From IMG/VR virus record IMGVR_UViG_3300021963_000029, positions 64,001 through 128,000 of that record: a stretch of 64,000 nt of DNA; one strand, 5' to 3'. The notes under the pieces are model-generated. The model searched no databases. It was not told the origin of the DNA and saw only the letters and a program-made list of their open reading frames with translations. The position numbers and the translations under genes were made by a program. This DNA comes from a virus. Positions 1-64,000 of this stretch are shown in pieces; the stretch's first letter is position 1; the number at the start of each line of letters is the position of its first letter.

Positions 1-1343
1 TCAATTAATCTAACTGACTTACTATACTTAAACCTCCCACCGAACTTGTTTAAATCTGTAGAGTCTGAATAAGTCTGCAGAGATTTAACTACTTGTGATT
101 TTAGATCACTTACTGCACCAATAAAGTTTGAATTGTAGTAGATAGAAGATACTAGTTCTACATACAAAACATTAATGTCTACAAAGTTTGGTTGAATTCC
201 TGCTATACTGTATTTTTTGAGAGAAGCAAGAATAAACTCTTTAGTTTGCTCTGACAAATAATCAGAATTTTTTGGTTTTGCTGCTATGAATACCTTACCA
301 AACTGTGGTGGAGATAACTCTTCACCACCATATGCAGTTACTGACTCAATGTTTGGATAAATTGATGGTAATAATGCTTCATAATCTGCTGCTGTAACTG
401 CTCTGTACTGGGTTGAGTACATTCTTGGAGCATAATACCTAATAGACTCTATTGATTGAATATCATCACCATTATTTGCTGCTTCTGTGGTAATAACAAC
501 CCCAACACTAGATCCTAGATTGGACCCAGTATCAGATAAAACTGTACCAGAAAATACAAAATCAGAGGCACCATTGCCCTGCTTACCATTAGTTGTGATA
601 TATGATACTAAAACTTGATTATTGTTGACTAATTTTTTACCAAAGATTCCATCTCCAAAGAAAATTTCATATTTCTCATCTGAGATTTCTTGCACTAAAA
701 AGATTCTTGAGTTTGTATCAATGTTCAAAATATTATCAACAGGAACAAACTCTTGAGTTGTTGTTGACTGTATAGTATCTTTTACATTCACTCTAATTGT
801 AGAAGTGTCTATAAATGGGTTTGGTAAGATATACTTTTGGTTTGGTTGAGAAGTATCAACTATAAACTCTTTGGTGAGTAGAGTACCCTCATAGATGTTA
901 ACATCAAGGAATACTGCTTCTCCTTGACTAACACCAACTGTGATGTCTTCTGGGATTGAAAAAATATAACTTGTGTTATCTAAGTTACCAGTGCAAACAA
1001 TTCCTTTCTTTAAGGTTGCTGTTTTTACTGTTGAATTGATTCCAGTGATGTTAAAAGATATTTTTGCTGTTGCTGCTCTTCTTGATAGTGGAACATACCC
1101 TACATTCCTTGCTAAGGATACTACGTTCTCCCTTAAGGTGGCACTATCAATAAATGACTCATTAACCACCATGTTGGTGTTAAATGCAGTCAGGTAGGTA
1201 TTATAAGCAAGTACATCAATTAAGATTGAAAAGTTAGAACCTTCAAAATCAAAGTCAGTGAAGTTAGAGTTTGATCTTAAGTAATCTTTAATAGATGTTC
1301 TAATCTGATCAAAGTCTAGATTAGTGAATTGAGTAAATGCCAT
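1..1343 (-). CDS. gp6: Baseplate wedge subunit gp6 (N-terminal part; runs off window start; missing from ORF track)
   Basis: My translation from ATG 1343: MAFTQFTNLDFDQIRTSIKDYLRSNSNFTDFDFEGSNFSILIDVLAYNTY, the typical T4-like gp6 N-terminus; TAATG overlap with gp25 stop. Confidence 0.92.
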   Translation of the reverse strand, partial: MAFTQFTNLDFDQIRTSIKDYLRSNSNFTDFDFEGSNFSILIDVLAYNTYLTAFNTNMVVNESFIDSATLRENVVSLARNVGYVPLSRRAATAKISFNITGINSTVKTATLKKGIVCTGNLDNTSYIFSIPEDITVGVSQGEAVFLDVNIYEGTLLTKEFIVDTSQPNQKYILPNPFIDTSTIRVNVKDTIQSTTTQEFVPVDNILNIDTNSRIFLVQEISDEKYEIFFGDGIFGKKLVNNNQVLVSYITTNGKQGNGASDFVFSGTVLSDTGSNLGSSVGVVITTEAANNGDDIQSIESIRYYAPRMYSTQYRAVTAADYEALLPSIYPNIESVTAYGGEELSPPQFGKVFIAAKPKNSDYLSEQTKEFILASLKKYSIAGIQPNFVDINVLYVELVSSIYYNSNFIGAVSDLKSQVVKSLQTYSDSTDLNKFGGRFKYSKSVRLI

Positions 1344-1747
1344 TAGTATCTGGTTGGTTGTAATATGAATGTAACTAATTGTTGGGGAGCACTCAATCCA
1401 ACAATATCATAAATGATACTTACATCCATGGCATTATCATCTGGGAAAAGAGAAACTTCTACGTTTCTCAATCTAACTCTAGGTTCAAAGTTATTGATAA
1501 CTGTTTTGATTTCATCCTTTATGGGTTCTTCAACGCCAATGTCAGCAAGTTCAAAGAAATAATTTTCAACCTTAGAACCTAAAAGAGGATTAAAGAATCT
1601 CTCACCAACTCTAGTTCTCACTAGATTGATAACTGCCCTTTTAATAGCATCCTCGTTTGTTAATGAAATAATATCATTAGTAACTGGATTTCTCTTAAAA
1701 GACAGACTGATATCTTTAAATCCTCTTGAAACAGATTCTAAAGGCAC
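1343..1747 (-). CDS. gp25: Baseplate wedge subunit gp25
   Basis: DISLSFKRNPVTNDI...AIKRAVINLVRTRVGERFFNPLLGS...INNFEPRVRL, GPW/gp25 signature; next to gp6. Confidence 0.92.
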   Translation of the reverse strand: MPLESVSRGFKDISLSFKRNPVTNDIISLTNEDAIKRAVINLVRTRVGERFFNPLLGSKVENYFFELADIGVEEPIKDEIKTVINNFEPRVRLRNVEVSLFPDDNAMDVSIIYDIVGLSAPQQLVTFILQPTRY

Positions 1748-1769
1748 TTTTAGATCTAATATTTACTTG

Positions 1770-1776
1770 TATTTAT
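1770..1776 (-). promoter_or_regulatory. T4-type late promoter (ATAAATA) for gp25/gp6
   Basis: tatttat on plus strand, 23 nt upstream of gp25 ATG. Confidence 0.6.
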
Positions 1777-2009
1777 TGTGGTTTTCCATAAATTGGTTCA
1801 GTGCCATACTCCCAATCATCATAATCTTCATCATTTCTAATTCTTTCATGCATTTCTGCTTGTTCTTTTAGATGATGGTCAATATGAACCTCTTCATGAG
1901 CAATTTCTTTAAGAATTTTTTGAGGTTGACCATAATCTGTCACTAATTTTGTGGTTCCCCACATCTGATGCATGTAATTTGGGTCTCTATCTACTGGTAA
2001 ATTTGCCAT
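1773..2009 (-). CDS. Hypothetical cyanophage protein
   Basis: 78 aa ORF, tightly packed and co-oriented. Confidence 0.7.
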   Translation of the reverse strand: MANLPVDRDPNYMHQMWGTTKLVTDYGQPQKILKEIAHEEVHIDHHLKEQAEMHERIRNDEDYDDWEYGTEPIYGKPQ

Positions 2010-2039
2010 TTTTCCTAATTCTAAGTGAATTAGAACTTT

Positions 2040-2258
2040 TTACGGGGTTTCTATCCCGAAATTAGCAATATTTTCTCTATGAAAAGTTGAATTTTTTTGT
2101 ATTCTAATGTCGCAGTTCCTAAAAGTCCAACAGTACCCACCATTATCTAGGAAAACAACCCACTCAAGGTCATGTTCCTGTGATCTATCGATCAAAAAAA
2201 ATGCCCAGCCTGATCCTTTTGGGGTCAGAACTGGGATTTGTGGGTCAAGTTGGAGCAT
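2040..2258 (-). CDS. Hypothetical protein
   Basis: ATG 2258 overlaps upstream TGA (ATGA). Confidence 0.7.
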   Translation of the reverse strand: MLQLDPQIPVLTPKGSGWAFFLIDRSQEHDLEWVVFLDNGGYCWTFRNCDIRIQKNSTFHRENIANFGIETP

Positions 2259-2401
2259 CAATGCCCTTGACCTCTGTAACGCTTCTTCCTGCCATTACGA
2301 GAGGTGGCAGAGAGGTTAGTATGCTGAGAACAACCCTGACGAGTCTTCTTGGGTTTGTGCTCAATGACAACTTTGTTTGTCAGTGAAGGACGCTTTGCCA
2401 T
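2258..2401 (-). CDS. Small basic protein (47 aa; missing from ORF track)
   Basis: MAKRPSLTNKVVIEHKPKKTRQGCSQHTNLSATSRNGRKKRYRGQGH; AGGAG RBS upstream. Confidence 0.75.
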   Translation of the reverse strand: MAKRPSLTNKVVIEHKPKKTRQGCSQHTNLSATSRNGRKKRYRGQGH

Positions 2402-2403
2402 AA

Positions 2404-2568
2404 TTAAATCTCCTGTGTTCTTTCAAATTCTACCACAATATCCTCTGGATGGGGAGCCCCTGTCTCATAAAATTGTTGAGACAGGTCATCCATTACATCA
2501 AACATCTCTTCTTCAGAAAGATCTTTATAGATCGCTCTTCCATTGCAAAGGATGCTGTACTTATCCAT
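2404..2568 (-). CDS. Small acidic protein (54 aa; missing from ORF track)
   Basis: MDKYSILCNGRAIYKDLSEEEMFDVMDDLSQQFYETGAPHPEDIVVEFERTQEI; start overlaps upstream stop. Confidence 0.7.
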   Translation of the reverse strand: MDKYSILCNGRAIYKDLSEEEMFDVMDDLSQQFYETGAPHPEDIVVEFERTQEI

Positions 2569-3320
2569 CAGATAATCCTAGTCTTCTCGTGACCAACTCT
2601 AATTTGTGGATGACACCAAATGTCAAAACCACACTTTCTCTTAGCATCAAGACAGAATGAAACATCCTCTCCACACATGTCCTGAACCTCTCCAGAGTCA
2701 AAGACCTGCATTTGTGGAGCAAACCATGGATACTTCATTTCGGGGTGCTCAAAGACTCCCTTCTTGATGATAACCCAACCAAATCCAGTATAGTCTACAG
2801 TAAATGGTTTCTTTCTGTTGACAATGGTATCAACCATTTCATGATTCATGACTCCACCATTATTCTTGAAGTCATCTTCATCCAACCAATGTGCTACTGA
2901 AGTGGTTCTACCATCCTCTGTAGCATACCATCCACAGGCAATGTCCTTGTCCATGTCAAAGATTGCCCAGAAGGCATCTGTGTTGAATACAATGTCACTA
3001 TCAATCCAGAGTTGATAGTCATAATTTAGTTTACCTTGCCAGGGTTCTTGATCTGGTCCTGCAAGTACATTTGCCCCTAGGCATTTGCATCTTGCAAAGT
3101 TAACCATGGAAGAATAGTCTTGGGAGATCTGAATACTTGCTCCTGCCTGTACTAGATCAAAGCACAGTTGGACAAAGTTCTTCAGGAATGTATAGGATAC
3201 TCCTCTTCCTGGCAAACAAAATACAATAGTCTTTCCTCTAATCCTTTCTCTACACCTTTCAATATCAAAAAGTGGTTGTTGCTCTGGTTCTTTTGCTTTT
3301 ACAGTAAATCCTTTTGCCAT
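2568..3320 (-). CDS. Glycosyltransferase-like protein (GT-A fold)
   Basis: LWIDSDIVF DxD motif, TGFGWVIIKKGVF, GEDVSFC, VGHEK; typical GT2-like motifs. Confidence 0.75.
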   Translation of the reverse strand: MAKGFTVKAKEPEQQPLFDIERCRERIRGKTIVFCLPGRGVSYTFLKNFVQLCFDLVQAGASIQISQDYSSMVNFARCKCLGANVLAGPDQEPWQGKLNYDYQLWIDSDIVFNTDAFWAIFDMDKDIACGWYATEDGRTTSVAHWLDEDDFKNNGGVMNHEMVDTIVNRKKPFTVDYTGFGWVIIKKGVFEHPEMKYPWFAPQMQVFDSGEVQDMCGEDVSFCLDAKRKCGFDIWCHPQIRVGHEKTRII

Positions 3321-3548
3321 AAAATTTTATTCAAGTTGCGATGACGTACGTATCAACTCAAATGATACTGCACTATTTATTTTAAGTCAATCCACTTGTT
3401 TCCAAGCAGATACCAATTCATAACTCTATGGAGGAAAAACGGTTTTTTCTTCTTCCACAAACAAAATAATCCTGGATCTTCTGGATCATAATTAATGCTC
3501 CAGTGTCCTACATATCCTGATTCTCTCTGAGAATTATAAAAATCTCCA

Positions 3549-3887
3549 TCATTCATTGTTCTCTACATCCTCCATAAGTTCATCATAAGCTTCATTTAAA
3601 AATTTATCTATGTCATCTATTGGTACAGTCTTAACTTTACCAGTCCTAACATCTTCTGCCATTTGCATTAGATTTTCAAGGAATGCTTTAGGAAGAGTAT
3701 CATCTTCTCCTAGTTGTGACCAAAACCAATTATAACATTCTTCATAAGGATCATCATAGAACATGAGAGCATAATCCTTATAGTTGCCAGTCATCAAATC
3801 ACCCCAGATCCTAAAGGTTCCACGAATGTTTTGCCAACCAGTCATCCAACAGTGACCAATCCAATACTCAAACCAGTTCATTTTCAT
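3549..3887 (-). CDS. Hypothetical protein
   Basis: 112 aa, Trp-rich, co-oriented. Confidence 0.65.
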   Translation of the reverse strand: MKMNWFEYWIGHCWMTGWQNIRGTFRIWGDLMTGNYKDYALMFYDDPYEECYNWFWSQLGEDDTLPKAFLENLMQMAEDVRTGKVKTVPIDDIDKFLNEAYDELMEDVENNE

Positions 3888-3906
3888 ATGATAGAGAGAT
3901 ACGGCG

Positions 3907-4056
3907 CTAGAACTTCTTTTTATAATTATACTCTAAGGTAATCTTTCTACTCTCATTGTACTTATCTGCAACATAAGAGAATGTACAGTCTGCCCCAAAA
4001 TGATTGGCAAGCACCTGAATAATTTCTTGGAATAATTTCTGATTGTCTTCTGTCAT
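3907..4056 (-). CDS. Small hypothetical protein (49 aa)
   Basis: MTEDNQKLFQEIIQVLANHFGADC...; ATG overlaps upstream stop. Confidence 0.55.
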   Translation of the reverse strand: MTEDNQKLFQEIIQVLANHFGADCTFSYVADKYNESRKITLEYNYKKKF

Positions 4057-4259
4057 TTAAACCCCTTTGTTTTTTTCTGAGGTGGATCAATTACTTCAAT
4101 GTGACTCAACATGTTCCCTGGTGTGCCCCACCAAGTCCTCTGAGCATCTTCATAGTTATCAAAGACCACTGACTCACCATTGAATGCTACTACCTTGTAG
4201 AAGTGCCTCAAATAGGGGTCAGAGGATGTTTGAGTAAATGTACTAGTCATCACAATCAT
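4053..4259 (-). CDS. Hypothetical protein
   Basis: 68 aa ORF in packed operon. Confidence 0.65.
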   Translation of the reverse strand: MIVMTSTFTQTSSDPYLRHFYKVVAFNGESVVFDNYEDAQRTWWGTPGNMLSHIEVIDPPQKKTKGFK

Positions 4260-4401
4260 TCACAATTAAAAACTCCTTTACCTGAAAATCAGTAGAAAAC
4301 CCTGCACTAATCATCTGGGATATACCAGTGAGTGTCTTCTCACATTCCGAGAGACTACCTTCACAAAACACCCTGTCTCTTGCAATCAACTTGTAGACCA
4401 T
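4243..4401 (-). CDS. Small hypothetical protein (52 aa)
   Basis: MVYKLIARDRVFCEGSLSECEKTLTGISQMISAGFSTDFQVKEFLIVNDCDD. Confidence 0.6.
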   Translation of the reverse strand: MVYKLIARDRVFCEGSLSECEKTLTGISQMISAGFSTDFQVKEFLIVNDCDD

Positions 4402-4679
4402 TTTTACCCTGGGAAAATTTTTTTCTTATAATGGGACCCAAGTATATTTAATCCCTCCCACAGGCAAATTCCAATATAACTGAATTCATCCAAGGGGCTG
4501 GTCTCTGTCCCATACACATTCCTATAGAGCAACCTTACAGGACTTTTTTGACCCCAGAAAATTTTTTTAATCACTTGAAATAAAGCTCTTGTTTTCAAAG
4601 TTTTGTAGGTTAGGGTAGTTTGGATTTTTCGCATTACCCCACAAGGGGTAACATAATAACACAAAACACCTGCTAATTC

Positions 4680-4708
4680 ACTATAACATACCCACTGCAT
4701 TTTGTCAA
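4680..4708 (-). promoter_or_regulatory. Sigma70-type promoter
   Basis: TTGACA (4703-4708) - 17 nt - TATAGT (4680-4685). Confidence 0.7.
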
Positions 4709-4757
4709 CCCCTGTATTCACTGAGACCCACACATCTCATCACTGTTTTACATTGTG

Positions 4758-5055
4758 TTTTCCACATGTTTTCCACAATTATTCACAAGTTTTCCACAGG
4801 TATCTTATACTGAGTTTCACTGAGATTGTGTCACTCACTGGGATCTCACTGATTTACACTTAAGACCTGTGGAAAACTATCACTGTCAAGGGGCAATGTG
4901 CCAGTTCTGAGTGTTCCTGGGGGGTGTTGACATTTCTGAGGGTTTGTGATACAATGGGGGCCAAGATCACTAGACTCAGAGACATTTACTGACAATACAC
5001 TGAATTATACATAGTTTTCCACATTTTCCACAAAATAACACAAACCTGTGGAAAA
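4758..5055. promoter_or_regulatory. Cluster of 8 DnaA-box 9-mers in a non-coding island
   Basis: TTTTCCACA at 4758, 4769, 4790, 5015, 5024; TTATTCACA at 4779; reverse TGTGGAAAA at 4868, 5047. Confidence 0.8.
4927..4955 (+). promoter_or_regulatory. Sigma70-type promoter, opposite to the local gene direction
   Basis: TTGACA (4927-4932) - 17 nt - TACAAT (4950-4955), with extended TG. Confidence 0.75.
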
Positions 5056-5121
5056 CTCAACTACATTTATTTTGACATTTATTTGATTTCCCTAACATTG
5101 TGCGGAATGAACATTTAGGGG

Positions 5122-5325
5122 TTAAATGTCTTTCAGCACATGCCTATAATCAATGGATTTGATACACCAACCTGATGCACATGTGATCTCTTCAACTAGA
5201 TCTTCATCATCATCTGCTTCATAGATTTCCCCAACATAGAGAGAGGTTAGATGATCTTTATCAAATGGAGTTAGTGTATCATCCCCATCAAAATCAAACT
5301 CAATGTATGTAATTTGGAATTGCAT
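5122..5325 (-). CDS. Small acidic hypothetical protein
   Basis: 67 aa, early cluster. Confidence 0.65.
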   Translation of the reverse strand: MQFQITYIEFDFDGDDTLTPFDKDHLTSLYVGEIYEADDDEDLVEEITCASGWCIKSIDYRHVLKDI

Positions 5326-5326
5326 T

Positions 5327-5518
5327 TTATGCTTCTTGGATTAACTCAGGATAGTATTCTTCAATCTCACTTAGCAGTTCTTCATCACTATACATAGAGA
5401 GATTTTCTTCAAGTTGATCACCTACCAATCTCATCAGATCTTTGGTGCTCATGCTATCAATAATGCGATCAACATAAGATGAAACAAGTTGATCACGATT
5501 GGGGATTGGAATTGTCAT
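5327..5518 (-). CDS. Small acidic hypothetical protein
   Basis: 63 aa, early cluster. Confidence 0.65.
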   Translation of the reverse strand: MTIPIPNRDQLVSSYVDRIIDSMSTKDLMRLVGDQLEENLSMYSDEELLSEIEEYYPELIQEA

Positions 5519-5643
5519 TTAGTTTGTTGGAGTTTGTTAATTGCAGTGGTGATAGATGTGGTCAGCATGATACAAACATCTTGATCACAGACAGCATACA
5601 CAGGTTGCTTAGTGTTGATGTCAAAAGTGTACTTAATGGTCAT
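5515..5643 (-). CDS. Small hypothetical protein (42 aa)
   Basis: MTIKYTFDINTKQPVYAVCDQDVCIML...; ATGA coupling to next gene. Confidence 0.55.
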   Translation of the reverse strand: MTIKYTFDINTKQPVYAVCDQDVCIMLTTSITTAINKLQQTK

Positions 5644-5648
5644 TTGAG

Positions 5649-5852
5649 TTAATTATACCAGTGTGCTAATTGTGCAATTTCAGAAGCAACCTCACAGAGA
5701 TTATCTTCTGTCAAAAAGTTTAGATGATGTTGGATGTCTTCATCAGGAACATAGAACAAATCACCATTGATTTCTTGTGCCATTTGATCAGCAAGATTGA
5801 GGCACTTATCTACAAGATTATTCAACTCAATTCTCCTCACTGTGGAAGTCAA
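5649..5852 (-). CDS. Hypothetical protein
   Basis: 67 aa, early cluster. Confidence 0.6.
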   Translation of the reverse strand: MTSTVRRIELNNLVDKCLNLADQMAQEINGDLFYVPDEDIQHHLNFLTEDNLCEVASEIAQLAHWYN

Positions 5853-6114
5853 TCATCATCTCATTGATCTCATCATGGTTGATCAATTCATGATTCCAGG
5901 CAACACCATCATTGGTGGTCATTCTATCACAATTCTCCATGCACCTGATGAACTTATCATAGGGCATTTCATCATCATTTCTAAACTCTACACATGCAAC
6001 AGCAGTGTTATACAGAAACTGGTTGTTTTGCATCCACAGAGCAACATTCCAGGTTTCATAATTTGCCCAACCATTGTAAGTTTCTTGGGGCATTGCAGTG
6101 GTTTGATTTTTCAT
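5827..6114 (-). CDS. Phage hypothetical protein (YNGWANYETWNVALW motif), leaderless start
   Basis: Start moved to ATG 6114, which lies 6 nt after the -10 box. Confidence 0.7.
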   Translation of the reverse strand: MKNQTTAMPQETYNGWANYETWNVALWMQNNQFLYNTAVACVEFRNDDEMPYDKFIRCMENCDRMTTNDGVAWNHELINHDEINEMMIDFHSEEN

Positions 6115-6196
6115 ACATGTATGATAGCACAAAAAACCAGGAAAGTCAATAGGGGTTGTGCCAGTTCTTCAACTGGCACATGATGTCATTTAGTGG

Positions 6197-6376
6197 TCAA
6201 AAATCAAAGTCATCAGCATAATCATTGTCCATGATGTAGGCATCATCAGGCACAGGAACTTGATCCTCTTGAGTATCTACAACTGCATCCAATACAGTGA
6301 GAAGATCCTCACCAGTTTGTGCTTTGGAGAGCATAACCATGGCAGCAGTTTTAGGCAGGTTCAGAGTAGCAGTCAT
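6197..6376 (-). CDS. Small acidic protein (59 aa)
   Basis: MTATLNLPKTAAMVMLSKAQTGEDLLTVLDAVVDTQEDQVPVPDD... Confidence 0.6.
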   Translation of the reverse strand: MTATLNLPKTAAMVMLSKAQTGEDLLTVLDAVVDTQEDQVPVPDDAYIMDNDYADDFDF

Positions 6377-6419
6377 GAGTGAAATTAAAGGGTTGAAAGT
6401 GTAAAGAAAGAAGGGTTAA

Positions 6420-6860
6420 TCAAAAGTTTTTGGTGAACACAAAACCATCATTGAAGGCAAAATCATAATACAAATTGCGTTCCCATGTGGCAGTCCAATC
6501 AATCACAACAGGCACATCATCCAGGTTGGTGATGTAATGCTCACTGACATATTGCTCAGCAAATTGTTCCTCACTGTCATACTCTCCAAAGTATGCATCA
6601 CAGAAGTTTGCAATGGCATCAATACCAAACTCATCTACAAAAGCATCCACTGCTTCATAAGAATACTCCTCACCATACTTCACATAATCTTCATAATAGG
6701 CAAGGAAGTTATCATTACCATAGACCTGAATGAACTCAATCATGTCACCTTCATAGAAGTTTTCTTCCTTGAGTTCATTGATCTTTTCTTGCACATCATC
6801 AGAGATGGTGATGATAATGTTGGTCATTTCAGTGGTTTGGTTGGTGTTTTGATTTTTCAT
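6420..6860 (-). CDS. ArdA-like anti-restriction (DNA-mimic) protein
   Basis: Very acidic; C-terminal AYFGEYDSEEQFAEQYVSE...IDWTATWERNLYYDFAFNDGFVF resembles the ArdA C-terminal domain; leaderless early promoter. Confidence 0.6.
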   Translation of the reverse strand: MKNQNTNQTTEMTNIIITISDDVQEKINELKEENFYEGDMIEFIQVYGNDNFLAYYEDYVKYGEEYSYEAVDAFVDEFGIDAIANFCDAYFGEYDSEEQFAEQYVSEHYITNLDDVPVVIDWTATWERNLYYDFAFNDGFVFTKNF

Positions 6861-6914
6861 ACATGTATGATAGCACAGATTCCTTGAAAAATCAAGGGGT
6901 CTTGTGCCACTTTG

Positions 6915-7590: not shown

Positions 7591-7767
7591 ACATGTATGG
7601 TAGCACAGAATCCCTAGAAAGTCAATGGAGTCTGTGCCACTTCATCAACTGGCACATCATTATACTTTTCCGCATCAGTTCCGTGATACATGTAGTAAAT
7701 TGTGTTGTTCATGGTTATCATCATCAGCATGATAGTTCTTGATAACATGAAGTGATTGATTAGAGGA

Positions 7768-9036: not shown

Positions 9037-9042
9037 AAAAAG

Positions 9043-10022: not shown

Positions 10023-10039
10023 AATAATGTTGTTGGTGA

Positions 10040-34915: not shown

Positions 34916-34916
34916 A

Positions 34917-55159: not shown

Positions 55160-57165
55160 TATCTATCAGCACAAAGAATTACTTTTTGAATTGGTCTTCT
55201 GTCTTCTGGAAGTTGACCAATCTCTACAAATTTAAGAACTGGTAACAGTATAGCACCTGATCCTGAATCTGTATTTATTACCAGTTTAGGAACAGTTCTG
55301 ATGATACCTCCATTGACTATTTTAGTATCAATTATTCTACCATCAGGATCAACAACAGGGTAAATTTCTACACCAGTATCACAATAGAGATTGTAAATTA
55401 GATCTTCCTCTCTATATCCAACTCCAGTGTTGATAATGATTACATCAGAAATATATGCAGTGTATTCTGTTCCATCATCTCCAACTGGATTTGTAGTGCA
55501 AGCATCACCTTCAGGAGAAACATATCCCATACCATTGCTATCCATGTAGACACTATCAATCTTCCCATCTTTAAGAATGACATTACCTCTAGCACCACCT
55601 CCAGTATTACATGCATCTTCAAAGGTAACATAAGGAGCAGTAGTATAATTTGCACCAGGATCCTTGATGTTTACTCCCATGATTTGACCAAGAACATCCA
55701 CAACAACTGCACCTGATCCACCACCTCCACCAAAACCACCAAAGAAAGTTACCTTTGGCAATCCACAGTTAAGAGTTGTGCCATCACAAGTTGCATAAGC
55801 AGCAAACTGTTCTTTAGTTAATCCTAGTTCAGCAAGAACATTATCACTTGGGGCACCTCCACTGTTTTGACCCAACCAACTTGCAAATTGTTTCTTGCCA
55901 TCAGAGAATAGATTTCTTACTCCTTGAGCTGGTGAATAACTTAGTACCTTTTGGAAATTAACTGATCCTTTTGGAACATATCCCTTATTCATTTCATAAT
56001 CAAATTCTTCCTTACACTTTGCATCTTCACATGAGAAGAAAGAAAGAATTGTTTTTGCATAATTAATTGCCTTAGAAATGATCCCACTAACTTGTCCAAT
56101 TCCCTGCCCTAAGACTGAAGTTAGTTCTTGAATTGCAGGACCAATTGCTTTGCTGATTTCATTTCCAATGGTCTGCATCATGCTTCCAATGAATGACTCA
56201 ACTGCACAAAGAGGAATTGCTACAACCTTTCCTACCATTTGTGCAAGGAAATCAAAGACAAAAGAAGAAATTTTCTTAAGGATATTTTGGAAAGTACACC
56301 AAATACCATCTACAATTTTATCAGTTGCTAATTTCTTTGCAAGAATAGCATCCTTTGGTAATAGTTTTTCTATTATATTTTTTAGACCTTGATAGATCTG
56401 TTCTATAATAAAGTCTCTGGTCAGTTTAGTAAAATCTGCAAGTCCATCAGCAATAGCAGTGGTAGTTTCCTGAATTAATTCAGGAATATTTTGTATGAAA
56501 TTTAGTGTTGGATTTACATAGATGTTAATATAGTTTTGAGCAGTATTCAAATAGTAGATAAACTTTCTAAGTGCTTGTGCAATCTTAGAAACTTTATCAG
56601 TTCCAGTTTTACATGCAGAAACAGTTTGTACTACTGGTGCTGTTCCTGGTGCTGCTGCTGCTTGTTTTTGAGACTCCTTATTATCTGCAGTTCTTCCAGT
56701 TGATAGTGGAATACCAGAGTCTTTTGGTTTAGTGCCATCAGCAGGTTTACTGGATGGATTAACTATCTGCTCTCCAGGTTTAAATGGTTTAAACCCATTT
56801 GTACCTAGGTCAAAAGTGTTTGGATGTTCAATGGATGCACCAGAGAATAATGCACCAATGATGACAGGTTGTTGCCCATCATCACCATCCATAAAGAATC
56901 CAACCACTGCTTCAGATCCTCTTGGGTTGAAGCTAGCACCAGATCCTCCTTCACCTGAACCAAAGTTCAAAGGAACTAGAACATGTGCCCAAGGTAGATC
57001 CTCATCCTTAACTACACTTGAAGAATCAGGATGATGACCTATGATTCTAACCTTTGCCCTATATCCATTCTCAGTATTCTTGTACTTGGTAACTATACCA
57101 ACAAACCATCTAAAGGAATCTCTTCCAATGAAATTAGGATTAATTAGGGATTGTTCTATTAGCAT
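55159..57165 (-). CDS. gp5: Baseplate hub subunit gp5 (N-terminal OB fold; no T4 lysozyme domain recognised)
   Basis: GRDSFRWFVGIV...RAKVRIIGHHP...DLPWAHVL...VVGFFMDGDDGQQPVIIG. Confidence 0.85.
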   Translation of the reverse strand: MLIEQSLINPNFIGRDSFRWFVGIVTKYKNTENGYRAKVRIIGHHPDSSSVVKDEDLPWAHVLVPLNFGSGEGGSGASFNPRGSEAVVGFFMDGDDGQQPVIIGALFSGASIEHPNTFDLGTNGFKPFKPGEQIVNPSSKPADGTKPKDSGIPLSTGRTADNKESQKQAAAAPGTAPVVQTVSACKTGTDKVSKIAQALRKFIYYLNTAQNYINIYVNPTLNFIQNIPELIQETTTAIADGLADFTKLTRDFIIEQIYQGLKNIIEKLLPKDAILAKKLATDKIVDGIWCTFQNILKKISSFVFDFLAQMVGKVVAIPLCAVESFIGSMMQTIGNEISKAIGPAIQELTSVLGQGIGQVSGIISKAINYAKTILSFFSCEDAKCKEEFDYEMNKGYVPKGSVNFQKVLSYSPAQGVRNLFSDGKKQFASWLGQNSGGAPSDNVLAELGLTKEQFAAYATCDGTTLNCGLPKVTFFGGFGGGGGSGAVVVDVLGQIMGVNIKDPGANYTTAPYVTFEDACNTGGGARGNVILKDGKIDSVYMDSNGMGYVSPEGDACTTNPVGDDGTEYTAYISDVIIINTGVGYREEDLIYNLYCDTGVEIYPVVDPDGRIIDTKIVNGGIIRTVPKLVINTDSGSGAILLPVLKFVEIGQLPEDRRPIQKVILCADR

Positions 57166-57383
57166 CAGTCGTCGTACATCCTACACTCTAGTGCATTTGG
57201 ATTTTCATCGCAGAATAATTCAAGAGGAGATGGATCATGCTCATCATCTGGATGATTTGATGCATAAGATTCTAAAGATTCCAATTCATTTTCAATGTGT
57301 CTTCTTCTTTGGGAAGAAATCATTGGGTCAGAAAGTTCTGACTTATCTTTTTCTATGTGATCTTTGATGTTTTTAAATGTCAT
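57165..57383 (-). CDS. cp12: CP12 Calvin-cycle inhibitor (auxiliary metabolic gene)
   Basis: DPSPLELFCDENPNALECRMYDD C-terminal CP12 motif. Confidence 0.92.
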   Translation of the reverse strand: MTFKNIKDHIEKDKSELSDPMISSQRRRHIENELESLESYASNHPDDEHDPSPLELFCDENPNALECRMYDD

Positions 57384-58654
57384 TTTGCTACTCCATAAGA
57401 GTCTCTTACTAGTTCTAATCCAGTGAGACCTTTATCAGTGAAAGAATGCTTTAGTTTACTTATAATATATTTACCAGATTTGCTTTCGTCTTTTAAACCT
57501 TGTTCATCAGTATTCTTTGTAATTTTTCCAAAGTCAAGATTGATAACATCTCCCACTGTTAACCCCAAGTTTAGGGGTATAGTTATATTTAACGACTGAC
57601 TAAACAATAAATTGTATCTTGACACACCTTGTGCCTGATATTCCATTCTTTTATCTGGTGCTTCTAACTTACCAGTTTTATCCATCTGTCCATTGTCAAG
57701 CATTCTAACCATTAATCTTGAAGGACTATCTTGTAATCCTTTTGGTATTTCTGGAGAATTATCTTTATCAGAAGAATGATTCATGATCTCATAACTGTCT
57801 GATAACTTATAAACATTAGAATAAAATTTTCTAGTGTTAGTATCAAAGAAATAGTTTACACTAGAGTACATCCCTATTCTTAAATTGTCTAAAATGTTTA
57901 CATTCTTATTAAAAACAGGTGGAGAAGTAATCTTGAAATTTAATTTAGGATCAGCAGGTGCTGCTGTTATTTCTTTGTAAAAATATGTTTCCTTTGCTGG
58001 TCTATTAGAATCAAACAAAGAATCTACACTCTTAAAGTTGTATCCATCTTTGTTCTCAAAAAATAAAAATCCTGCAGTACCTTGTGTATTTCCTGACTTT
58101 CCTCTTTCTACTTGTGGTATTCCTTTAGGACATAACCATCCCAACACAGTGAATGGTTTCCTTGCATTGGACATGAAAGAATATTTGTTTATGGTCTTTT
58201 CTATATTGCTGCTATTATATCTTGTTGTCTTTAACTCATCTTTTAAAATTTTAGATACTGTATTATCTAATGTATTATCATATCTCTTAAACAATCTAGA
58301 TGTTTCATTGACAAACACTTCACTTGGAACTAAATCTAAGGTGAATAATTCTTTTGTAGATTCTGTCGTAGAGTTTCCAATATTATAAACATAATAGATG
58401 TTATCTGATTCATCAAAAGTCAATCTTAATTTAGTTGCATCTTGCTCAATAACTAATCTTACTATCTCTCCCCCTCTCAGTTTTAATTTGGAAAGGATGC
58501 CACCAGTGTTAATTACTGCCAAAGAAAAATATGTAACTGGAGATGTAATACTCTCAGTATATTCCATAGAAGAAATTGATTGAGATATATCAATAAATCC
58601 TTCCCCAGTTCCTATGGAACATTCTATAATTTTGTAATTAAAATATGATGCCAT
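57380..58654 (-). CDS. Baseplate hub protein (gp27-like)
   Basis: FLFFENKDGYNFKSVDSLF, LTVGDVI...SGKYIISKLKH; position in hub module. Confidence 0.7.
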   Translation of the reverse strand: MASYFNYKIIECSIGTGEGFIDISQSISSMEYTESITSPVTYFSLAVINTGGILSKLKLRGGEIVRLVIEQDATKLRLTFDESDNIYYVYNIGNSTTESTKELFTLDLVPSEVFVNETSRLFKRYDNTLDNTVSKILKDELKTTRYNSSNIEKTINKYSFMSNARKPFTVLGWLCPKGIPQVERGKSGNTQGTAGFLFFENKDGYNFKSVDSLFDSNRPAKETYFYKEITAAPADPKLNFKITSPPVFNKNVNILDNLRIGMYSSVNYFFDTNTRKFYSNVYKLSDSYEIMNHSSDKDNSPEIPKGLQDSPSRLMVRMLDNGQMDKTGKLEAPDKRMEYQAQGVSRYNLLFSQSLNITIPLNLGLTVGDVINLDFGKITKNTDEQGLKDESKSGKYIISKLKHSFTDKGLTGLELVRDSYGVAK

Positions 58655-60606
58655 TAACCTAAAGAGTTATAGTAGAGTTTTTTCAATAACATTTTATCTG
58701 CATCACTTTGAATATTTAGAGATGGTGACCCACCTGAAGAAACATATTGAATCTGTGGTGGCATGACAGGAATTGGAACTTGAACAGTTTGTGGTGGTAA
58801 TTCTGACATAGCCATTGTATAACTTTTTGATTTTACCAAGATTGATTGTAAAAGAGGAACATCAACATTCTTTAGGGGATCTCCTCCACTTGCAGTAAAA
58901 TTATTATCTAAGGGGATAACAGCTTCTGTGCCATGCAAAAATTCAAAGTAACCAGACTTTGGACCTACTGATATGCCACCTTCATTCTTTCCTTCTTTCG
59001 CTCTTTCAATAGAAAGAGGAGATGAAATTCTATTTTTAACACCTCTAACTACTGGAAGAGGATCAGTTGGAGTTTTTCCATCAGGATAAACCTCAAAGTG
59101 TAGGTGTGTATTGCCACCATCTGGATACAAAGTAGCTATTTGTTGTCCACCATAAACTACTTGCCCAACTGAAACACTAGGAACAACATGAACATATCTT
59201 GTTACTAGTCCACCACCATGATCTATTTCAACAACTCCTCTATATCCATTATTAGCTGCCTTAATTACTTTTCCTGTTTTATATGCAGCAACTGCAGCTT
59301 CTAGTGGTCCACTCCAATGAGTCATATCTAATCCAGCATGAGATCTACTTCCTCCATCTCTTGATGCTCCAAAACCTTGACTTGCACTGACCCTTCCTTG
59401 AGTTCCAACATCGCCTCCAGGTAAAGGCATAAAAGTATCACCAGAAATTGGACCATCATATGCTCCTCCTGGGGGAATATTAGGTGCTGCCATTGGAGCA
59501 CCTTCATTATATGGGTCAGAAGTGCTAACTGCTCCAGTAAAATTTAAAGCAAATCTTTCAAATTTAACCAATGCTTTTTCATAACTTACAAGAGTTTTTC
59601 CAAAAGTTAAATTACCACTTCCTTCTACTAATGCCTTCTGTTTTTCTGTTTGTGTTTTTAGTTTATCTTTGTTTTTATTTTTATTTTTTTCTTCTTCTGC
59701 AGCACTAACCCCAAGTAAATCTCTAGTAAGGTTAGTTAAATCTAATGCAAATGATGCAATGGATGCCAGTCCTGCAAGTGGAAGACCTATGCCTGTTGCT
59801 GCAGATCCAGCAGCAAAAGCATCTAAAGCAGCACCAGTCCCTGCTATTGCAGCACCAGTCTGATCTCCTGCCTGTGCTCTAAATGCAGCATCAGCAGCAC
59901 CAACAACTGCACCAACACCAGGAATAATTGAAGCACCAAATTTTCCAAATGCTTTTGCTGTTCTTCCTCCTTGAGTTGCAGTTTGAACTGCATTTCCTCC
60001 TTGTCTTGATCTTTTAAGAGCATCATTACCAAATCTTTTTTTAAAAGAATCATCACCATATCTAGATCTATATCTTTCCTGTGCGCCAGTAGATACTCTT
60101 CTTCCAGTAGCATCAAATCCTCTTCTAACTTTTGGTCCTTTATTGAAAAAAGCATCTCCTGCCATTCCTAACAACCCAGGACCTAATAATGCTGCAGCAG
60201 CAACCATTCCTGGTGACAATGCACCAAGGAAGTCTCCCTGCATTAATTTGTCTACTGAATTAAATGCTGCCAGTGCACCAAGTGATTTTAAAAAATCATC
60301 TGATGCTCCTGCAGTAAAAAAAGTCCCTTTAAACTTAGGTAAAGTTATTCCTTTTGGTTTTTGTTTTTGCTTTTTCCTATACTTATTGTCATTTTCTTTT
60401 TGGATAGAATCTAATCTTTTTTTGTATCTGTTTAAAACAGACAGTTGAGTTTTTCTTTGATATATTCCATTCTCAAAAGTTTTTCTTAGAGCAATAGAAG
60501 TCTTTTTAGTTTTGGTAGAAACTTTAACTAAAGGACTAATTGTAGTTACTTTAGCAACTACTGTTGGGGTTTCTTTTGGTTTTGCTAGTAAAGTTTGTGC
60601 GTCCAT
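58654..60606 (-). CDS. Tail (tape-measure-like) protein with M23 peptidase domain
   Basis: HAGLD (HxxxD), TRYVH, THLHFEV; helical, Ala/Gly-rich N-terminal half. Confidence 0.8.
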   Translation of the reverse strand: MDAQTLLAKPKETPTVVAKVTTISPLVKVSTKTKKTSIALRKTFENGIYQRKTQLSVLNRYKKRLDSIQKENDNKYRKKQKQKPKGITLPKFKGTFFTAGASDDFLKSLGALAAFNSVDKLMQGDFLGALSPGMVAAAALLGPGLLGMAGDAFFNKGPKVRRGFDATGRRVSTGAQERYRSRYGDDSFKKRFGNDALKRSRQGGNAVQTATQGGRTAKAFGKFGASIIPGVGAVVGAADAAFRAQAGDQTGAAIAGTGAALDAFAAGSAATGIGLPLAGLASIASFALDLTNLTRDLLGVSAAEEEKNKNKNKDKLKTQTEKQKALVEGSGNLTFGKTLVSYEKALVKFERFALNFTGAVSTSDPYNEGAPMAAPNIPPGGAYDGPISGDTFMPLPGGDVGTQGRVSASQGFGASRDGGSRSHAGLDMTHWSGPLEAAVAAYKTGKVIKAANNGYRGVVEIDHGGGLVTRYVHVVPSVSVGQVVYGGQQIATLYPDGGNTHLHFEVYPDGKTPTDPLPVVRGVKNRISSPLSIERAKEGKNEGGISVGPKSGYFEFLHGTEAVIPLDNNFTASGGDPLKNVDVPLLQSILVKSKSYTMAMSELPPQTVQVPIPVMPPQIQYVSSGGSPSLNIQSDADKMLLKKLYYNSLG

Positions 60607-60609
60607 TTA

Positions 60610-62625
60610 TTATCCAATAGCTCCAAGTATTCCCATCTGAGTTTCATAACTATACATATCAGATCTGTTGCTTGCACTAACACTTGCCAAAGCAGAACTC
60701 CCTGCTGGGTTAGCAGAACCAAGACCATCTGCTCCTGCCATTTGAGGAACTGGGATCACAGCAACTCTAGGTCCTGACCCTGCACTAGAAGATAATTGTC
60801 TTCCTTGTGGTCTTGCTGGTTGTGCTGGAGGGGCAGGTTGAGCAGGAGGAGGTGGAGCAGATCTTGCACCTAAACTTCTTCTACCTTCTTGTAAATCTCC
60901 TTGAGTGACTTTAGAATTAGTAGTCCAAGCAGACCATCCTGAACCTCTCAATACTTTTAAAGCTGCCTGAGCATTAGTCACTGGATCCTTTAGTTGCTCA
61001 TAATTTGTAATTCCAAATTCTTGCATTCTTGCTGGTCCAAGTCTTCCTATCATATTAATTTGCCACAGACCATATGAATTGTCAGATCCTCCTCTGAGAT
61101 AACTATCATTGTGAGCACCAGCTCTACCACCAGATTCATACTTTGCAATAGCAGCTAATCTTACTGCTTCCTCATCAGTAGCTCCAACTTTTTTAGCAAG
61201 ATCTACAAGTTGTGCATTATTAAATTGAGGACCAGTGACAGTACCTCTCATTGATGGATCCATGTTAACTTCACCTGTTCCAATAGGAGGATTAGGTGTT
61301 TGTTGTGCACCTGCTCCTCCTCCACCGCCTCCACCACCCCCACGATCTTTCTTAGTTAGAAGTAGTTCTACTGCCTTTTCAAATTTTTCATTTAAAGTTT
61401 GAAACTTTTTAAGATCAGTTTGTGTTATAGTTCCTATTGCATCTGAAGTTAATGCTTTTTGCTCTGCAGTAACCTCTTCAAGTCTTGTTTGTGAGGCATC
61501 AACTTCTCCTTCTTCTCCTTGTGATGCTGCAAAAGCACCACCCAAAGCAAGAGCACCAGTGCCAAGTGCTGCCATCTTACCAAACTTACCTATACCAATA
61601 CCAGGACCTCTTGACATTCCTCCAGGGACTCTTGGTGTTCTAGCACCAAACATATTTTTACCAAATCCTTTGAGCAGACTTTTTAATACTGCTCCAGCAA
61701 CCATTGCTCCTATCTGAGGTAGGAAAGTAATTCCTATACCCATAAAGGATTTAAAAACTTGTCCCCAGTCTCCTCTAACTAAAGCATCTAATAAATTAAA
61801 TGCTGCTAATGATCTAATGGCACCACCAACTCCAGAAAAGAAATTACCAACAAATGGTTTTATAATATCTTTTAATTCTTTTTTATTATCTCCAAGATCT
61901 TTTCTTGGAAGTTTTCTTCCTCTATTTGCTACTCTCTTTCTATAGTCTTCTATTTCTTTTTTATTAGTTTCTTTAGTTTGCTTATAGTCTTCTTCTATTA
62001 TTTCTTTAATTCTATCTAAGTTGTCTCCAATTTGAACAAGATCTAAAGTTAATCTTCCTAATGAAGATGAAATTGCTTTTGGAGCTACTGGTCCTTGAGA
62101 TTCTTCTGAAGTAGCTGCCTGAGAAACCCCTGCAGGAACAGCTCTTTTGGGAACTATCCCTGTCATTCTGGTAGTTTTTAATGCTACTTTTCTTCCAGGT
62201 CTAAAGGTAGATTCAGGTCTAGAAATAAATGATTGTGCTTTCTGTTTTTTTTGTTCTTGTATTTCTTTTAATCTAGATTCTATTGCAGCATCTTCAATCT
62301 TTTGATTGGTTTGTTGCTGGAATGGTTTCTCAAGAAACTCTTCTACCAACCATTTCTGATATGCTTCATTGTTATATGCTCCACCATACTTATCATTTTG
62401 ATTTAGTTGTGGATACTTACCATACTTCTTGATATTTGCAATCAATCTATCTGCATCAGCATTACTAAGTTTTGTATAAGATGTAAAGTTCTCTCTTAAC
62501 CCTTCAACTTGTCTACCAGTTAATCTACCTTTTAATCTTGCCCAAGTTATTTCACCAACCTTATTAGCAGGCCAATAAGGTTGCTGTGGATCTAATATTC
62601 CTTCTGGTGGTGATGTAATATTCAT
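60610..62625 (-). CDS. Tail (tape-measure-like) protein with lysozyme/SLT-like domain
   Basis: AIAKYESGG...SYGLWQIN...DPVTNAQAA...GWSAWT. Confidence 0.8.
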   Translation of the reverse strand: MNITSPPEGILDPQQPYWPANKVGEITWARLKGRLTGRQVEGLRENFTSYTKLSNADADRLIANIKKYGKYPQLNQNDKYGGAYNNEAYQKWLVEEFLEKPFQQQTNQKIEDAAIESRLKEIQEQKKQKAQSFISRPESTFRPGRKVALKTTRMTGIVPKRAVPAGVSQAATSEESQGPVAPKAISSSLGRLTLDLVQIGDNLDRIKEIIEEDYKQTKETNKKEIEDYRKRVANRGRKLPRKDLGDNKKELKDIIKPFVGNFFSGVGGAIRSLAAFNLLDALVRGDWGQVFKSFMGIGITFLPQIGAMVAGAVLKSLLKGFGKNMFGARTPRVPGGMSRGPGIGIGKFGKMAALGTGALALGGAFAASQGEEGEVDASQTRLEEVTAEQKALTSDAIGTITQTDLKKFQTLNEKFEKAVELLLTKKDRGGGGGGGGGAGAQQTPNPPIGTGEVNMDPSMRGTVTGPQFNNAQLVDLAKKVGATDEEAVRLAAIAKYESGGRAGAHNDSYLRGGSDNSYGLWQINMIGRLGPARMQEFGITNYEQLKDPVTNAQAALKVLRGSGWSAWTTNSKVTQGDLQEGRRSLGARSAPPPPAQPAPPAQPARPQGRQLSSSAGSGPRVAVIPVPQMAGADGLGSANPAGSSALASVSASNRSDMYSYETQMGILGAIG

Positions 62626-62810
62626 CTATTTGCTTTAGCAGCTTTTTCTTCCTCTTCTCTTATATAATTTTCTAACAGGGAAAGATAAATCTCTCTTTCC
62701 CATGGAATCATATTTTCAATCTCTGTCAAAGAGTATTTATGATGCTGCATCAAGGCAAAATTAGTTCTATAGTATGCCTCTAGATCTTCATGACCAAGGA
62801 CTAACCGAAA
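62622..62810 (-). CDS. gp51: gp51-like hub assembly protein frame; no canonical start before ATG 62750, probably reached by -1 frameshift
   Basis: GHEDLEAYYRTNFALMQHHKYSLTEIENMIPWEREIYLSLL in the -1 frame of gp26. Confidence 0.8.
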   Translation of the reverse strand, partial: FRLVLGHEDLEAYYRTNFALMQHHKYSLTEIENMIPWEREIYLSLLENYIREEEEKAAKANR

Positions 62811-63529
62811 AAACTGGACAATCCCTCCAGAACAATCTCATTGTCTTTTCCAGTAACTGGATTCTTGACTGTCATAGTGTGAGTTAGTTTTGGCATAGTA
62901 TCAAAGAAAGTTTCAATTTGTTTAAATTGATTTGAATCAAAAGTTTCCAACCACTCTACCAATTCTTTTTTGGTTACGTCACTACCAGACCAAGTTTCAT
63001 CTGCAGTGTATACCATATCAATACATGATGCAACAATTTCAAAAGACTTATTGATAGTTTCTTTGCTACTGTTAGCATTAAAATTAAAGTTATTATCAAT
63101 AAACTCTTGGAGAGATGGGTACTTCATCTTCACCATAATTTTATCATCTACTTTGATTTCAGATGTATGTTCCTCTGGGAACTTAACTTCAATGTCTGTA
63201 ATGTCAACAGAACATTCTACTTGGGTTTCTCCATCATCAGGACAAGTGATTACAAGTTCTACTGCTTCCCCAACAGACTTTGCTCTGATGTTCAGGAACA
63301 GATACTCAATATCAAAACTTGGAAGAGTATCAATTCTAATTCCTTTTGTTAAGACACATTCCTTCAAAACATTTTTAACTGCTCTGGTGATCTCTTCAGA
63401 ACTATTGCTCTCCATAGCAAGGATAAGAATCTTTTCCTCTTTGACTAGGAAAGGTCTATATGAAATTTTCTTTTTGTTTGAAGGTAAAATCAACTCATAA
63501 GTTGGAGTTGCAATCTTTGGTAAAGGCAT
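62801..63529 (-). CDS. gp26: Baseplate hub assembly protein gp26
   Basis: MPLPKIATPTYEL...YRPFLVKEEKIL...DIEYLFLNIRAKSVGE...CPDD...LEGLSSFF. Confidence 0.9.
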   Translation of the reverse strand: MPLPKIATPTYELILPSNKKKISYRPFLVKEEKILILAMESNSSEEITRAVKNVLKECVLTKGIRIDTLPSFDIEYLFLNIRAKSVGEAVELVITCPDDGETQVECSVDITDIEVKFPEEHTSEIKVDDKIMVKMKYPSLQEFIDNNFNFNANSSKETINKSFEIVASCIDMVYTADETWSGSDVTKKELVEWLETFDSNQFKQIETFFDTMPKLTHTMTVKNPVTGKDNEIVLEGLSSFFG

Positions 63530-63557
63530 AATGTCCTATAGATTTCAGTAATGTTAT

Positions 63558-64000
63558 TTAGTTGGTTGGTGCTGGTGGTCCTTGTAGTGCAGGAGTTACA
63601 GGGGATCCACTTCTATTCTGAGATCTCAATCTCATCTCTCTAAGTTCATCTATTTGTTGCTGTAAACTTGGAAGTTGTGGATATCCATCAGGGAACTCTG
63701 CCTCTGAAGCACCAGCAGTTCCTGTAGGAGCAGCTGGTGCATTACCTCCAGGTCCAATTACAGTTCCAGATGGTGATCCATTTTCTTCTACTCCAGGATC
63801 AGTGCCAAGTGCAAATCTATTTGATTGGTAGTTATAAACATCATAGTTAAATGTAACTGTCGTCTTTAGTATACTTGCTCCATCATATGAAACTGGAATA
63901 GAAATTAAATTAGATGGAAAAGCATTTCTTAAAGTATAAGTAACACTCTTTGCTGGAGGACCATAGACTCCTTCCTTTACAAGTCTTTGATCTTTCTGTC
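63558..64000 (-). CDS. Tail-tube initiator / gp54-gp19-like protein, C-terminal fragment (runs off window end)
   Basis: YTLRNAFPSNLISIPVSYDGASILKTTVTFNYD. Confidence 0.7.
   Translation of the reverse strand, partial: QKDQRLVKEGVYGPPAKSVTYTLRNAFPSNLISIPVSYDGASILKTTVTFNYDVYNYQSNRFALGTDPGVEENGSPSGTVIGPGGNAPAAPTGTAGASEAEFPDGYPQLPSLQQQIDELREMRLRSQNRSGSPVTPALQGPPAPTN

Follow-up and report, generated by a model that had tools for sequence, protein, structure and literature searches.

The window analysed here, a stretch of 64,000 nucleotides (positions 64001-128000), belongs to a single IMG/VR virus record of 180,814 bp, IMGVR_UViG_3300021963_000029, which CheckV rates as complete. Its early or auxiliary part and its late structural part (Table 1) are both strongly depleted in the dinucleotide CpG, as is the whole genome, and the present work reports a tight, phylogenetically repeated link between this depletion and a gene located outside the window, encoding a DNA methylase related to N4CMT of the rotifer Adineta vaga. 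The genome carries the core genes of T4-like cyanomyoviruses, including gp23, the gp41 helicase, the gp43 polymerase, UvsX, RegA, gp44/45, gp46/47 and gp32, together with psbA/psbD-sized genes and a cobS-like gene, and is by its gene content a T4-like cyanomyovirus of the Kyanoviridae type. The major capsid protein has 76% identity to its counterpart in Prochlorococcus phage P-SSM2 and 71% to the P-TIM68 protein, and no close relative at the DNA level was found among 50,697 deposited phage records. A simple call of open reading frames (ORFs) gave 229 genes and a coding fraction of 94%, with 201 of the 229 genes on the minus strand; within the window, the plus strand displays a marked asymmetry, with more T than A and more C than G.

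CpG levels are given as strand-symmetrised ratios of observed to expected dinucleotides (o/e). The window holds 242 CG in 64,000 nt, i.e. a CpG o/e of 0.110, for a G+C content of 37%, with GpC at 0.90, TpG/CpA at 1.34 and TpA at 0.74. The whole genome displays a CpG o/e of 0.114, all its 3-kb segments falling within 0.01-0.25, and its GpC o/e of 0.88 indicates no depletion of the reverse dinucleotide. An earlier note on this DNA had claimed a strong CpG depletion from hand counts, which turned out to be exact: one CG in positions 1-1080 (30 expected) and one in 43021-43380 (16.5 expected). Its estimate of about 2 CG per 60 nt from base composition agrees with a computed 2.04, and its remark that GC dinucleotides are common fits the GpC ratio. 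Arginine is, as it had stated, mostly encoded by AGA (1538 codons, for 296 AGG and 212 of all CGN combined), and the TTCAA T-loops it had reported in five tRNAs were counted in 5 of the 10 tRNA genes of the window, the other five having TTCGA. CG is, again as it had remarked, somewhat less rare in the early region and in the cobS-like gene than in the structural part (Table 1), where several genes of 0.4-2 kb hold just 0-3 CpG.

Table 1. Position of the features discussed in the text (window coordinates unless a genome or locus is named)
Feature	Position	Strand	Remarks
CpG-depleted window	1..64000		242 CG, o/e 0.11; part of a T4-like cyanomyovirus genome (assigned by gene content)
Early/auxiliary part	1..26500		9 tRNAs, PD-(D/E)XK nuclease, epimerase, cobS-like gene; CpG o/e 0.165
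Late structural part	26501..64000	minus	Collagen-like tail fibres, baseplate, M23 and SLT domain proteins; CpG o/e 0.071
cobS-like AAA_5 gene	23117..24247	minus	11 CG, o/e 0.24
Nine of the ten tRNA genes of the window	8963..22685	minus	tRNA CpG o/e 0.39
Tenth tRNA gene of the window	53364-53449
N6_N4_Mtase gene (N4CMT-like), 256 aa	genome 2675-3445	minus	Pfam match; 60.5 kb upstream of the window
ORF425, 425 aa	genome 3477-4754 (L002)	minus	Directly upstream of the methylase; phrog_1462; no Pfam
Dam-type methylase gene (PF02086)	genome 14678-15505
HNH_3 endonuclease gene and overlapped Dam-type gene	L002:13951-15505
psbD	L003:16957-18018
Distant-carrier methylase loci	L511:6730-8651; L518:7326-9863; L514:9216-11646; L517:4345-5986

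The depletion concerns all codon positions, with a CpG o/e of 0.16 at positions 1-2, 0.09 at positions 2-3 and 0.12 at the boundary 3-1 between codons, and extends to non-coding DNA without the tRNAs (0.18) and, to a lower degree, to the tRNA genes (0.39). As a control, synonymous codons were permuted inside genes, which conserves both the proteins and the codon usage. In the window, 71 CpGs span a codon boundary where the shuffled sequences lead one to expect 609 +/- 18, and in the genome 259 where they give 1915 +/- 32; the depletion persists after this codon correction, at an o/e of 0.12-0.135 and not near 1. When the phage proteins are back-translated according to P-SSM2 codon usage, about 2440 CpGs are expected, for 601 observed. 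All 16 NCGN tetranucleotides are found at 0.04-0.16 of expectation, i.e. a 6-25-fold depletion, which indicates an effect on the dinucleotide itself rather than on a set of restriction sites. The CpG depletion is real, highly non-random and genome-wide, approximately 90% of the CGs being lost. One conceivable origin is the imitation of a CpG-poor host, whose dinucleotide signature or tRNA preferences would have been copied by the phage. The rarity of NCG and CGN codons is in line with such a translational selection, but the depletion is as strong over codon boundaries in the shuffled control and in non-coding DNA.

The available hosts do not fit this origin either. The D2 protein encoded by psbD matches those of Cyanobium/Synechococcus at 94-98% identity and those of Prochlorococcus at 89%, and the host is therefore probably a picocyanobacterium of the Synechococcus/Cyanobium type. 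Among 16 sampled genomes of the Prochlorococcaceae family, including Cyanobium stretches, CpG o/e ranges from 0.46 to 0.93 (0.46-0.56 where the genome is Prochlorococcus-like and low in GC, 0.65-0.93 elsewhere), against 0.114 in the phage, so that host mimicry was rejected for the sampled genomes. Moreover P-HM1, which infects MED4, a HLI Prochlorococcus of the same ecotype group as the host of the depleted phage P-TIM68, stands at 0.58. Taken with the codon-boundary data, we regard imitation of a host as scarcely probable. The psbA and psbD genes of the phage are themselves purged of CpG (0.15 and 0.23). Several metagenome-assembled genomes from Lake Mendota are among the best psbD matches, and many related contigs bear IMG sample numbers resembling that series, for which reason some members of the clade may be of freshwater origin.

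Such a depletion is characteristic neither of the phage family nor of the sampled hosts. Among 80 viral contigs picked solely on their gp23 similarity, 77 have a CpG o/e of 0.45-0.85, and the low-CpG exceptions include L007 (gp23 92% identical, 0.07) and L028 (0.13). A terminase-anchored sample is bimodal, with six loci at 0.09-0.21 and the remainder at 0.37-0.74. The complete reference genomes P-SSM2 (0.40), G006 (0.45), S-RIM12 (0.59) and S-CAM22 (0.63), as well as P-HM1, are devoid of the methylase gene described below. The view of the earlier note that this degree of depletion is unusual therefore holds within the family. An 18.3-kb contig (L337) has a terminase 90% identical to that of the studied phage and a normal CpG level of 0.51, which could reflect mosaicism between phages with and without the purge.

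The methylase gene lies between a segment containing mazG and ORF425 and a NMNAT-like gene. Its product matches the Pfam family N6_N4_Mtase (PF01555) over the full length of the profile (1-221 of 221, E 1.2e-31) and carries a TSPPY motif around residue 27 and a DPYSGSGTT motif around residue 190, i.e. a motif IV located N-terminal to the FxGxG-like motif binding S-adenosylmethionine (SAM). A motif IV of the SPPY form is characteristic of N4-cytosine methyltransferases, and DPPY of the N6-adenine type. The top PDB matches of the protein, at about 40% identity over 220 aa (E 2e-45), are 8S9M, 8S9N and 8S9O. These structures are of the catalytic domain of A. vaga N4CMT, which, according to the paper describing them, deposits N4-methylcytosine (m4C) preferentially at CpG and on both strands (PMC10406627). 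On the basis of the SPPY motif and of this match, the phage enzyme is assigned to the beta-class amino-methyltransferases of N4-cytosine type. Its co-occurrence with CpG depletion, described below, suggests indirectly that it would methylate CpG, giving m4CpG. It is the best conserved protein of its neighbourhood, with 92-98% identity between phages where gp41 shows 83-88% and the NMNAT-like protein 60-77%.

The earlier note had proposed a search of the rest of the genome for a C5 methyltransferase. None was found in the 180.8 kb (PF00145, no match at E<=1), with a control search positive in 12 of 14 genomes; a host C5 enzyme could conceivably act on the phage genome. The Dam-type methylase of the phage was rejected as a cause, similar genes being common in non-depleted relatives, for instance dam in both P-SSM2 and P-HM1; in the studied genome, a HNH_3 endonuclease gene overlaps the end of this D12-class adenine methylase gene (Table 1). 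A TnsA-like endonuclease was likewise discarded as a carrier-specific partner, since it also occurs in non-carriers. In the literature searched, neither a CpG depletion of cyanophages nor a phage-encoded m4C methylase acting on CpG is described, and the one paper in which P-TIM68 and methyltransferases both appear is silent on CpG.

Presence of the methylase goes with low CpG in several comparisons. All 80 IMG/VR loci with a homologue of 75-98% identity (4-21 kb each, 31-41% G+C) have a CpG o/e of 0.11-0.35, with a median of 0.21, and the long contigs with the gene are at 0.156 (G001), 0.169 (G003) and 0.202 (G002). The sole deposited phage with a homologue above 60% identity (79%) is P-TIM68, a cultured myovirus of Prochlorococcus MIT9515, whose 197-kb genome has, taken as a whole, a CpG o/e of 0.108. 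A gp41-anchored sample allowed us to score presence or absence at a single site of the chromosome, flanked by mazG and the NMNAT-like gene: the five loci with the methylase are at 0.12-0.22, and the approximately 35 loci spanning the site without it at 0.41-0.73. Two of the latter, L420 and L421, have a gp41 83-84% identical to that of the studied phage, as close as that of the carriers. In the gp41 tree, the low-CpG state requires at least seven changes, on well-supported branches, and the carriers L417 and L097 (0.14-0.17) are sisters of the non-carriers L420 and L421 (0.53-0.54). A quick gp23 tree requires at least three changes and places the depleted phages in at least two distant positions, one being the clade of the studied phage and the other P-TIM68 with L028.

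More distant homologues are also surrounded by CpG-poor DNA, several of them in quite different T4-like phages. The surrounding CpG o/e is 0.19-0.20 for a homologue of 72% identity, 0.27 for 69%, 0.30 for 67%, 0.21 for 56% and 0.18-0.20 for 53%, and reaches 0.04-0.06 for a homologue of 60% found in a phage reading TGA as Trp (L518/L519, G+C 23%). Carriage of the methylase and CpG depletion thus go together over many independent lineages. In the distant carriers, the methylase gene adjoins a DruA-family gene (PF14236) and SAM lyase genes, or two to three N6_N4 methylases stand in a row (Table 1).

The origin of the low CpG level was addressed with substitution spectra in triples of related contigs, each consisting of two close sequences and an outgroup. 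Single-base differences were polarised by parsimony with identical flanking bases required, rates per site were compared by context, and third codon positions were used for synonymous changes, in 25 triples from carriers and 7 control triples from normal-CpG relatives. In the carriers, T>C changes making a CpG are rare before G in comparison with before H (96/5640 vs 732/6683, ratio 0.16, p 5e-106), and so are A>G changes making a CpG after C in comparison with after D (29/1937 vs 659/5741, ratio 0.13), i.e. a 6-8-fold suppression of CpG-creating synonymous transitions. The same T>C and A>G changes making GpC give ratios of 0.81 and 0.55. Existing CpGs are not lost faster than other sites: the ratio is 0.62 for C>T at CpG vs CpH (18/142 vs 522/2565) and 1.09 for G>A at CpG vs other sites (8/63 vs 492/4212), these CpG-loss counts being small, and 0.81 and 0.59 over all sites instead of third positions only. 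The control triples give 0.89 and 0.35 for CpG-making and 1.36 and 1.26 for CpG-losing changes. The suppression of CpG creation is already apparent in pairs less than 2% diverged (0.23 and 0.10). Between the studied genome and G001 (78% identity), retention at the codon boundary 3-1 is 0.25 for CpG vs 0.43 for GpC.

These spectra bear on the first of two causes put forward in the earlier note, namely long-term methylation and deamination. In such a mutational decay, CpGs methylated by the phage N4 enzyme or a host C5 enzyme would be lost through deamination or mispairing, as in vertebrates and Mollicutes. The phage does encode a cytosine methyltransferase, of N4 and not C5 type, and a TpG/CpA excess is indeed present in the window and the genome (1.29-1.34), its count being approximately equal to that of the missing CpGs. 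This excess is however not diagnostic, since TpG/CpA also reaches 1.12-1.24 in relatives with normal CpG. No C5 methyltransferase was detected in the genome by the PF00145 search, and m4C is described in PMC10406627 as deaminating to uracil, which is readily repaired. Above all, deamination requires a CpG loss several-fold above other transitions together with a normal CpG gain, and the data are the opposite: CpGs are not hypermutable at synonymous sites (the ratios of 0.62 and 1.09 given above) and it is their creation that is deficient, even in the least diverged pairs. According to our estimate, mutation could mimic the observed pattern only with a CpG decay two orders of magnitude above other transitions. 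We consider mutational decay improbable. The absence of CpG hypermutability and the suppressed CpG gain point to a low CpG level maintained by purifying selection against new CpGs, not by deamination.

The second cause put forward in the earlier note, a selection linked to a CG-recognising system, is supported in a general form, whatever the selecting agent, by the suppressed creation of CpG in these phages and not in their relatives. We give about an even chance to the proposal that the genome-wide purge is tied to the phage-encoded methylase, an orphan methyltransferase of presumed CpG type, and is kept by purifying selection. According to this proposal, the N4 enzyme would methylate CpG as a broad cover against restriction enzymes with CG-containing sites. 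Restriction pressure is considered real in the family because CCGG is nearly absent from the four references without the gene, with 0/86 (observed/Markov-expected) in P-SSM2, 0/110 in S-RIM12, 0/126 in S-CAM22 and 1/147 in G006; P-SSM2 also lacks GCGC (0/71) and CGCG (0/34), and G006 is strongly depleted in GATC (217/983). Reliance on a two-base methylase would oblige the phage to have each CpG modified on every new genome copy, and each CpG would then bear a small cost or risk. Candidates for this cost are unmethylated sites on fast-replicating DNA left open to CG-containing restriction enzymes, the load in enzyme and SAM, or m4C itself. In very large phage populations, selection could then remove the dispensable CpGs in every context. 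This account of how a CpG methylase might make CpGs costly is the conjectural part of the proposal.

The same selection signature could also result from a parallel adaptation, in which a host defence acting on CG-containing DNA selects CpG avoidance and the CpG methylase independently, the methylase itself adding no cost to CpG. The purge of CCGG, GCGC and CGCG in references without the gene indicates that restriction at CG-containing sites is of consequence in these hosts, and TCGA is still extra-depleted in the carriers, at 0.24-0.52 of its Markov expectation. Yet to our knowledge no prokaryotic defence recognises bare CpG, and the 16 contexts are all depleted; the sister phages without the gene, presumably exposed to the same host pools, stay at a CpG o/e of about 0.5; and GpC is undepleted in the genome although GC-rich recognition sites contain it just as often. 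We hold this parallel adaptation to be unlikely, while giving it some weight.

The restriction sites themselves present a mixed picture. The depletion departs from classical restriction-site avoidance, as it affects every NCGN context and CCGG stands at its Markov expectation in the studied phage (8/8.2). In the four other carrier genomes, CCGG is at 8/9.5, 6/6.2, 4/9.3 and 0/2.7. A lifting of CCGG avoidance in carriers was considered as a proof of CpG methylation and rejected, since nine genomes fit it and 297 loci do not; the relief of CCGG in carriers is a weak hint only. Beyond the CG-containing sites, AGCT (198 vs 462 expected) is below the prediction from its sub-words in the window and the genome, and the same is true of GGCC (24 vs 76), TCGA (32 vs 64) and GTAC; the deficits of AGCT and GGCC occur in carriers and non-carriers of the methylase alike.

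Several observations weigh against the proposal that carriage of the methylase drives the purge. A homologue of 66% identity, at another locus, occurs in contigs with a CpG o/e of 0.40-0.44. Homologues of 40-43% in S-RIM12 and S-CAM22, about as near to N4CMT as the studied enzyme, are found in genomes at 0.59-0.63, so that homology alone does not give CpG specificity. Conversely, the 9.3-kb contig L443 has a CpG o/e of 0.28 with no methylase at the usual site, and is the only clear exception of this kind; purH and two ORFs of unknown function (approximately 480-510 aa) lie there between mazG and the NMNAT-like gene. CCGG is at 0.59 of expectation in 217 normal-CpG loci vs 0.46 in carriers. Selection also predicts a faster loss of existing CpGs, of which close comparisons give no sign (0.6-1.1), a moderately lower retention of CpG than of GpC being seen in distant comparisons only. 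The spectra also contain noise from the use of parsimony, from recombination among the contigs and from the rough calling and phasing of ORFs. Finally, causality could be reversed, a CpG methylase being tolerable only in CpG-poor genomes. The broader form of the proposal, in which a widespread family of CpG-directed N4-cytosine methylases, present in T4-like cyanophages of fresh water and the sea, the cultured P-TIM68 among them, and in further T4-like phages, forces a genome-wide CpG purge by purifying selection, seems to us plausible and a little short of an even chance.

The gene adjacent to the methylase, ORF425, suggests a further alternative, in which the two genes form a cassette resembling a restriction-modification system. 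The ORF425 product would be a nuclease cutting host or competitor DNA that contains unmethylated CG, and the phage would protect itself both by methylation and by loss of CpG. ORF425 is the only sizeable protein that the five carrier genomes all share and for which four non-carriers gave no hit; it always stands beside the methylase, and in the gp41-anchored sample it is found solely there. A confident model of the whole protein (predicted local distance difference test, pLDDT, of 84) and invariant D...SxK...E and ExK motifs are compatible with this function, as are language-model leads whose nearest named clusters are RE_HpaII (0.87) and RE_HaeIII (0.86), both weak and under the reliable level of the tool. 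On the other side, ORF425 has no Pfam match at E<=10 and no match in a PDB profile search, and Foldseek against the PDB gave nothing below E 0.1 with the whole-protein model. A VIA wide structure search returned a best Z of 4.5 (MspI at 3.5), with no significant match, and an atlas shape search returned unnamed viral clusters only; the domain-only model (pLDDT 62) was too poor for a structure search. A 24% homologue of ORF425 occurs at the same site in S-RIM2 next to DUF6267 and without the methylase, the distant carriers have no detectable ORF425 homologue, and CCGG is not specifically avoided in carriers. The cassette is thus quite improbable in our opinion. RE_HpaII was not found in 301 picocyanobacterial genomes searched. 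ORF425 is far more variable than the methylase (34-89% vs 75-98% identity), and its gene has no CpG in 1278 nt.

If the link to the methylase is causal, these phages would represent a natural experiment in which the same backbone with or without one methylase gene switches its genomic CpG level between about 0.15 and about 0.55. It would imply that a two-base methylase can reshape the sequence of an entire 180-kb genome, that the cost of an anti-restriction methylase can extend to the composition of the whole genome, and that a strong CpG depletion can be driven by selection in a bacterial DNA virus, thereby providing a prokaryotic-virus counterpart of the vertebrate CpG depletion without deamination. 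m4C at CpG would also be abundant in aquatic viromes, which would matter to methylation-aware sequencing, to dinucleotide-based host prediction and to virome binning. The phage lineage of enzymes would rank with the nearest relatives known for the rotifer N4CMT, itself acquired horizontally, and this family may be of use as a small CpG-specific m4C tool. As P-TIM68 is in culture, the idea is directly testable.

Among known systems, the closest to the phage enzyme is N4CMT of A. vaga (8S9M/8S9N/8S9O), which has the same beta-class motif order and SPPY catalytic motif (PMC10406627, PMC8885841). It differs by being a eukaryotic, chromodomain-bearing protein setting an epigenetic mark, the phage enzyme corresponding to a bare catalytic domain of 256 aa with a putative CpG specificity, and the sections of PMC10406627 consulted report no genome-wide CpG purge. 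Restriction-site avoidance, in phages and in genomes with restriction-modification systems, likewise consists in a purifying selection on short words tied to restriction or modification. Its classical form removes palindromes of 4-6 bp, whereas the phage loses a dinucleotide in 16 contexts, and does so alongside a modification enzyme rather than instead of it. In Mollicutes with the C5 enzymes M.SssI and M.MpeI and in vertebrates, CpG carries 5-methylcytosine (m5C) and its depletion is attributed to deamination to thymine. The phage shares with them a predicted CpG methylase, the under-representation of CpG and the TpG/CpA excess; unlike their m5C enzymes, its own is of the N4 type and is carried by a lytic T4-like phage, no C5 enzyme was found in the genome by the PF00145 search, its CpGs are not hypermutable, and the deficit lies in CpG creation. 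The RNA and small DNA viruses infecting vertebrates provide the last comparison. Their CpG suppression belongs to the setting of eukaryotic innate immunity with CpG-sensing host factors, in contrast to the phage, and we know of no bacterial CpG sensor; they nevertheless resemble the phage in that CpG appears to be held low by selection and not by mutation.

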